Origin: a virus
Lineage: Duplodnaviria; Heunggongvirae; Uroviricota; Caudoviricetes
IMG/VR virus record: IMGVR_UViG_2534682164_000018
Length of the DNA: 32,218 nucleotides
Reading direction: 5' to 3' (one strand)
The position numbers and the translations under genes are program-made. The notes beneath the pieces were generated by a model, which was not told the DNA's origin, ran no database searches, and worked only from the letters and a program-made list of their open reading frames with translations. Positions 28,387 to 29,796 of the stretch are shown here, one piece after another (within the stretch, counting starts at the first letter, position 1; each line of letters begins with the position of its first letter).

Positions 28387-29796
28387 GACTATACGAGTAC
28401 TAAAACTCTTGCTGCAAAATATGCTGGTTCGAAATGGACAAATAAATTTCTTGGTAAGGGTATTGTTAGTATCAGTACCGTTATCTTAAAAACTCAAGAT
28501 TCATTAGAAAATAATATTCTTGTTAATGATCAATTCGCTTTAACTGTAGAAATGAAAGGGCAGGTGATTTATGATTTTGTTGATGGTACTTATAAAGCAA
28601 GTAGTAACCCTCCTTCAATTATCTATGATTACTTAACAAATTCAATCTATGGTATGGGTATTGATCCATCATTGATTAATACCGATACGTTTGCAGAAAC
28701 CGCAGCATATTGTGATGCTTTTGAATATTATGCTAATGGTGCTATCAGTTATCAAAAAACCTATAAAGATAATATTGAAAATATCTGTCAGTCATTTGGC
28801 GGCATCATGTATGTACATGCCGGACAAATCTGTATTACCACAGACCGCAAATCGGTATCCGTAGCCTCATTTGATGAGCGTAACATGGTAGGGGCGGTAC
28901 AGGTTTCTACTTCTGGCGGTACTGACTACTTCAACGTAGTCGATTGCAAGTTTACTAACCCTGAATCGATGTACACCACTGACGTAGTACGTATCCCTTC
29001 CGATATCACTACGGATGAAGCAGTACAGCATGATGGACAGGTCATAGCATTATCACGCGATTACTCATGGTCATATGATCAAGAGGTGATTGCAAAAATG
29101 GCTAACGTTGATGTACTCAAGGCTAAGTATGCCCTGCGTACTATCAGCTTCACCACAAGTGAAGGTTGGGATCTCGAAGTATGGGATGCGATCAATGTCA
29201 GCAATGAAGAACTCGCTATCTCAGGCAAATTTAAAGTACTCAATAAAGATATCAGCACCGATCAAGAGAACGTTGGCTATGTAACCATCACGGCAGTAGA
29301 AGCACCTGATGCAATGTATGATGGTATTGATCCGGGTATCTGGTCGCCTGGTGGGGTAATTAACTTCCCTGAACTACAGGTACTACCGCCAACGAACCTA
29401 CAGGCAGTACGTAAGGGGAATACTACTTCTGGTTCAATCGTGGATCTTACCTGGGATGCTTCACCAGATCCGTATCTGCGTGGGTACTATGTTTACTACC
29501 GTCTTAACGGTTCCAGTACCTGGACGTATGCGGGGCAGACTGGCGTACAGAAGCTTGATTATGAATTATTTGGATTGTCTGATACTGCAAGCTACGACTT
29601 TTCGGTAGAGGCTTACAACAACTTAGGGCTGGTATCCAAGAAGCTTTCCCTAACTGGCATTGTTCCAACATTCAACTTTGCACTACCTGCGGTAACGCGT
29701 GTAGTACTGACAAATAAAACAGAATCAGCGTATGTAACTGACTCACCAGATTTCAATATTGCCTGGGATTCAACAAAAAGATATCAGAGTGAATAA
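28387..29796 (+). pseudogene. tail tip/host-specificity protein (lambda gpJ-like), C-terminal fragment
   Basis: Joins in frame to 27050 after removing IS2 and one GTGGT copy (...RFGG-DYTSTKTLAAKYAG...); the segment ...IIYDYLTNSIYGMGIDPSL...CQSFGGIMYVHAGQI... resembles the gpJ core (recalled). Confidence 0.65.

Follow-up and report, generated by a model that had tools for sequence, protein, structure and literature searches.

Homopolymer-length errors give rise to artificial frameshifts, and such frameshifts are typical of pyrosequencing-era draft genomes. The disruption of the tail fibre gene by insertion sequences (ISs) is typical of Shigella prophages. The locus described here belongs to a degraded, low-GC (guanine plus cytosine), siphovirus-type prophage of Shigella sonnei 53G, and it concerns a gene related to the lambda gpJ-type tip attachment or central tail fibre proteins, whose domain content (Phage-tail_3, fn3 and Phage_Tail_Tip) is shared by the intact 1100-amino-acid (aa) allele of this gene. 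The window, that is, the whole stretch of 32,218 nucleotides (nt) that was analysed (IMG/VR record IMGVR_UViG_2534682164_000018), is the end of contig ADUU01000102.1 (GCA_000188795.2), a draft of S. sonnei 53G. In this draft, the fibre gene presents itself as two open reading frames (ORFs) in different frames that share 38 nt, and a first-pass annotation made from the sequence alone offered three explanations: ordinary gene overlap, a frameshift mutation that split a longer J-like gene, or translational coupling. The two ORFs are adjacent parts of a single lambda-J-like tail-tip fibre gene rather than two genes, set in different frames by one extra A at 29772/29773. It is likely, with a probability of about 0.86, that this extra A is a sequencing or assembly artefact in a J-like pseudogene that was already inactivated by ISs.

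In the ORF list, the 483-aa ORF occupies 28345..29796 (+) and ends with the stop codon TAA at 29794-29796, and the 312-codon ORF occupies 29759..30697 (+), starts with TTG at 29759 and lies in frame +1 relative to the 483-aa ORF. The stretch shared by the two is exactly 38 nt in both the list and the sequence, so that the earlier statement that the 312-aa ORF opens 38 nt before the J-like stop in another frame is correct as a reading of the text. The draft's own annotation also consists of two coding sequences (CDSs), EFZ52323.1 for the 483-aa product and EFZ52324.1 for the 312-aa product, and these two products are on record from ADUU01000102.1 only. Direct reading and the three-frame translation show that frame +1 is open from 29738 and that frame 0 closes at 29796; therefore, the switch between frames is confined to the 59-nt interval 29738-29796, and the extra base falls within it. 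The TTG at 29759 is merely the first start-type codon after a stop in frame +1, and direct reading of the 24 nt before it, TAACTGACTCACCAGATTTCAATA, reveals no Shine-Dalgarno-like purine run. The outer boundaries of the ORFs are all artefacts of insertions because IS2 supplies the GTG "start" of the 483-aa ORF (28345), which sits within the right end of this element, and IS911 supplies the TGA "stop" of the 312-aa ORF (30695-30697), which is formed by its first three bases. The inner boundary, on the other hand, comes from a one-base insertion or deletion (indel).

At the junction, the draft reads TTCAACAAAAAG at 29772/29773, and TTCACAAAAAG is found elsewhere. In the alignments, TGGGATTCAACAAAAAG of the window stands against TGGGATTC-ACAAAAAG in a 2855-base-pair (bp) S. 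sonnei contig (L002) and also in finished 53G, and the intact reading across the site is ...IAWDSQKDIRVNN.... The L002 contig is one continuous ORF (P0006), and over 2457 nt the IS-free window differs from it by one synonymous mismatch and by one gap, which is the extra A. A position of the indel within the A5 run at 29775-29779, which would give the reading ...DSTKDIR..., was considered and rejected; the intact alleles put the extra A two bases upstream (TCA-A-CAA) and read ...DSQKDIR....

In gene order, the pieces of the fibre gene are a 5' segment, IS2, a middle segment, the frame change, a next segment and IS911 (Table 1). The 171-aa ORF at 26538..27053 joins position 28387 in frame after IS2 and one copy of its target duplication are removed. 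A megablast search of the gene body for near-identical DNA in phage, plasmid and E. coli complete-genome collections gave no match, and the prophage has no representative in these collections; therefore, relatives were reached via protein searches and exact-protein look-ups. The query for the homologue search was an IS-free, frame-corrected reconstruction of 940 aa, which, minus the one A, is otherwise identical in sequence to the intact S. sonnei alleles. This search found 193 homologues, the best of which are single proteins of 1067-1100 aa that align with 100% of the query at 80-89% identity; they come from Escherichia, Enterobacter, Klebsiella, Kosakonia and others, and their source name is "phage tail tip fiber protein". 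The comparison suggested in the first-pass annotation, that of the joined product with full-length J homologues and intact relatives, thus gives continuous matches. Of 131 homologues that were aligned, 128 span the junction ungapped via a conserved WD[SN]QKN..VNG motif, and a two-gene arrangement at the junction, with this overlap or otherwise, was seen in none of these relatives. Hundreds of other S. sonnei assemblies have the gene uninterrupted, at 1100 aa (P0125), and the index of the assembly collection lists it in 229 blocks; the three loci with this gene that were fetched carry the single-A allele. The "downstream fibre ORF" represents residues 634-940 of the J-like protein and no separate gene, and the window copy consists of three frame-disjoint pieces and is without the last 160 codons. 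In the proposal that a frameshift mutation split a longer J-like gene, the split itself holds, as one gene is divided by a frame change and removal of the A restores a frame that matches the full-length homologues, but the change is most probably a sequencing error and not a biological mutation. That proposal also overlooked that IS2 and IS911 interrupt the fibre gene and that the frameshift occurs in this draft alone.

The finished genome of 53G (HE616528.1) carries the same IS2 and IS911 insertions, has no extra A and contains a single 783-aa ORF across the site; within the gene body, the extra A is the sole difference between the draft and this genome. The hypothetical 783-aa product obtained by keeping both ISs and removing the extra A exists exactly as WP_241559704.1, and QWSU01000253.1, a second assembly with both ISs, likewise encodes it. 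In a census of alleles, the extra-A allele occurred only in ADUU01, and the single-A allele occurred in HE616528, QWSU01, DAZRVN01, CXET01, JANXIY01 and FTVI01. Comparison of the draft with finished 53G over window positions 2197-31942 (~29.7 kilobases, kb) yielded six 1-nt indels, all six within homopolymer runs, and the CC/CT difference at 8446 (Table 1); the remaining substitutions all lie within multicopy ISs. Outside the IS copies, the draft allele is private at five of six differences checked across assemblies, the CC/CT difference at 8446 being counted among the six. Two of the indels damage other genes that are intact elsewhere: the one at 21502 leaves 16 codons of a 99-aa gene that follows the major tail protein, and the one at 24901 shortens a minus-strand gene of 190 aa to 157 aa. 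Complete genomes of other S. sonnei strains show 0 indels relative to HE616528 over 12.7-16.5 kb, so the 53G draft is more "indel-divergent" than different strains are. Two assemblies of the same strain that differ by homopolymer lengths, with the odd alleles in the draft, are a signature of base-calling error of the sort known from pyrosequencing. A literature search on the strain and the finished accession gave only unrelated uses of 53G.

Based on the results presented above, the extra A, which the draft alone carries and the finished genome of this strain lacks, is most probably a sequencing error; that the cause is such an error and not a genuine change in the sequenced stock is our inference. 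In 53G, the fibre gene is already dead, with IS2 inserted behind codon 171 and IS911 behind codon 940. In the proposed explanation, a homopolymer-length error in base calling or assembly would have added one A at 29772/29773 in the draft and split the frame. There is thus no biological overlap, coupling or recoding at this site. Several points weigh against an artefact. The over-call of AA for A lies in a very short run and is less stereotyped than the under-calls at the other sites, which lie in runs of 5-8; a literature search for the accession ADUU01 gave no paper on its sequencing platform; and because the gene is already inactive in 53G, a further genuine frameshift in one laboratory stock would be neutral.

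The last point leads to the alternative that survives best, in which the 53G stock sequenced for the draft had truly acquired a one-base insertion, a further neutral lesion in a pseudogene already broken by both ISs. This is unlikely, although the non-functional state of the fibre gene in 53G would leave no selection to remove a frameshift and the indel lies in a dinucleotide run, not a long homopolymer. The allele is recorded in one assembly only, and an independently finished 53G genome is without it; moreover, five more homopolymer-length differences within 30 kb, with no ordinary substitutions outside IS copies, form a pattern of error and not of stock divergence, and different strains show only 0-1 indels. 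If genuine, the extra A would mark a laboratory sub-lineage of the 53G challenge strain and would serve as a stock-tracing marker at most.

It is highly improbable that the J-like ORF and the downstream fibre ORF are two genuine genes that simply overlap by 38 nt, perhaps with translational coupling. The mechanical ORF list and the two-CDS annotation of the draft are all that favours two genes, whereas the homologues of 1067-1100 aa are all single ORFs that cover both parts, as is the protein of DCP80, the closest record in the phage collection (~28% identity), in which one 1252-aa CDS spans the two parts without a change of frame. In addition, the junction lies within the conserved motif, the TTG at 29759 has no Shine-Dalgarno sequence, and the stop of the downstream ORF is supplied by IS911. 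The ordinary overlap that had been suggested is thus contradicted by the homologues that run continuously across the junction, and translational coupling fails with the lack of two-gene relatives and of a ribosome-binding site before the TTG. Least probable of all is a programmed +1 ribosomal frameshift that joins both frames, for which nothing speaks beyond two open frames across an A-rich stretch: recoding sites are conserved among relatives, but all relatives here, and the same strain too, lack the extra base and stay in frame, inspection by eye revealed no +1 shift-prone motif, a -1 slip on A-AAA-AG enters a frame that stops within a few codons, and the gene is truncated by two ISs anyway. 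Together, the in-frame relatives and the sequence of the junction refute an overlap of genes, coupled translation and programmed frameshifting.

The label "J-like" given to the 483-aa ORF in the first-pass annotation is justified, being borne out by Pfam domains, homologues, matches in the PDB and gene position. In Pfam searches, PF13550 (Phage-tail_3) matches the 483-aa ORF with 29.9 bits (cut-off 23) and the intact P0125 with 28.2 bits, and it is followed by PF00041 (fn3) at residues 348-428 of the 483-aa ORF (27.4 bits, cut-off 25). PF09327 (Phage_Tail_Tip) is C-terminal in the intact P0125 (72.2 bits, residues 927-1019); in the window copy, this region lies past the IS911 insertion and the end of the contig. 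Pfam finds no domain in the 312-aa ORF. Among solved structures, the last 250 residues match the "Tip attachment protein J central straight fiber domain" (9ze4_N, E 2.7e-17), a putative tail fibre of 1172 aa (9l9p_S) and the fibre of the F2 pyocin. The order of genes is the tape measure gene (737 aa), three small tip genes of 185 aa, 207 aa and 134 aa (the last with DUF6950) and then the fibre gene, and this order places the fibre distally in the tail module. The gene beneath these lesions is ordinary for the J-like tail-tip fibre family and offers nothing new.

Table 1. Segments and insertions of the J-like fibre gene in the window, and single differences between draft and finished 53G (positions are those of the window)
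Feature	Position	Strand	Description	Basis or occurrence
5' segment of J-like fibre gene	26538..27050	+	residues 1-171 of 1100-aa intact protein	171-aa ORF collinear with intact allele L012 up to its position 6513; reconstruction matches full-length homologues from residue 1
IS2	27051..28381	+	1331 bp, in fibre gene	ends read directly; 99.9% identical to "IS3-like element IS2 family transposase" elements
Middle segment	28387..29771	+	frame 0, about residues 172-633, Phage-tail_3 and fn3 domains	Pfam; DNA matches L002 and L012
Reported 38-nt "overlap"	29759..29796	+	frame +1 has first start-type codon (TTG), frame 0 not yet stopped	
One-base insertion	29772..29773	+	shifts frame +1, between codons S633 and Q634 of intact protein	AA versus A in all other assemblies examined
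Next segment	29774..30694	+	frame +1, residues 634-940	runs on from upstream part in P0006, P0122 and P0125; DNA identical to L012 up to its position 8821
IS911	30695..31942	-	in fibre gene	ends read directly; 99.7% identical to "IS3-like element IS911 family transposase"
IS600 fragment	31943..32218	+	at contig end, not fibre 3' end	100% identical to "IS3-like element IS600 family transposase"
Difference	8446		draft CCTTTTT versus finished CTTTTTT; CC/CT difference at T-run edge	draft only
Difference	9849		draft T7 versus finished T8	draft allele also in one other draft, AGRD01
Difference	21463		draft T5 versus finished T6	draft only
Difference	21502		draft A5 versus finished A6	draft only
Difference	24901		draft A7 versus finished A8	draft only
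Difference	29772		draft AA versus finished A	draft only
Difference	31862		draft T6 versus finished T7	inside IS911, outside cross-assembly check

The two ISs in the fibre gene can be followed at both ends. On either side of IS2, at 27046-27050 and 28382-28386, stands a perfect copy of the 5-bp target duplication GTGGT, and in the intact allele L012, which is without IS2, the flanks abut with a 5-nt overlap. In HE616528, the fibre gene resumes after IS911 with a CTA duplication and continues with its last 160 codons (a 167-aa ORF with Phage_Tail_Tip). In the window, the junction of IS911 with IS600 is probably a repeat-collapse join to another IS911 copy because the IS600 fragment makes up the last 276 nt of the contig. 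Two further elements lie elsewhere in the prophage. A second IS2 at 10825-12155 (-), which is 100% identical to the IS2 copy in the HE616528 fibre gene (locus L004), splits the gene for the terminase large subunit into a GpA_ATPase fragment (10422-10865) and a 486-aa GpA_ATPase/GpA_nuclease ORF (12196-13656). An IS21-family element (5125-7094, -) with IstA of 390 aa and IstB of 265/266 aa is located in the early region; CP026802 is without this element and has a 183-aa ORF that is continuous across the site.

Other genes of the prophage show features of their own. An 883-aa ORF (18247-20898), which separates the head genes from the major tail protein, has a C-terminal Peptidase_S74 (intramolecular chaperone) domain and contains a 75-nt tandem repeat at 19028-19342 in 4.2 copies (25-aa units). 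Its allele in CP179990 has 808 aa and is shorter by exactly 75 aa (three units), which suggests variation in the copy number of the repeat. The major capsid gene (15654-17498) is a protease-capsid fusion of 614 aa with Peptidase_S78 and Phage_capsid domains; about 50 nt of it are shared, in another frame, with the end of the portal gene, and gene callers give 612 or 614 aa across assemblies. The lone minus-strand gene at 24388-24861 (190 aa in other assemblies), which has no Pfam match, lies between the tape-measure and distal tail genes and is a moron-like insertion into a tail module whose other genes all run in one direction.

These results carry a caution for the use of draft sequences, since ORF lists and draft annotation turn a single tail-fibre gene, already broken by ISs, into two overlapping genes. 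In counts of pseudogenes, in surveys of frameshifts and in prophage annotation, the finished 53G genome (HE616528) is preferable to the draft.

The locus can be set beside three known systems. With regard to characterised phage J proteins, the domain content is shared, but the sequence similarity is low, at about 28% to the best phage record. The prophage resembles other cases of IS-driven pseudogenisation of Shigella prophage genes in that IS2, IS911, IS600, the IS21-family element and the second IS2 interrupt it and target duplications are intact; unlike in plain pseudogenisation of this kind, however, the insertions account for the outer ORF boundaries and not for the 38-nt overlap. Finally, the extra A is like the homopolymer artefacts of the pyrosequencing era in that it is a one-base difference in run length that is confined to one draft, disagrees with the finished 53G genome and is accompanied by five more homopolymer-length differences within 30 kb. 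It is unlike the stereotyped form of such artefacts in being an over-call in a run of 1-2 bases beside an A5 run, whereas the other five differences are under-calls.
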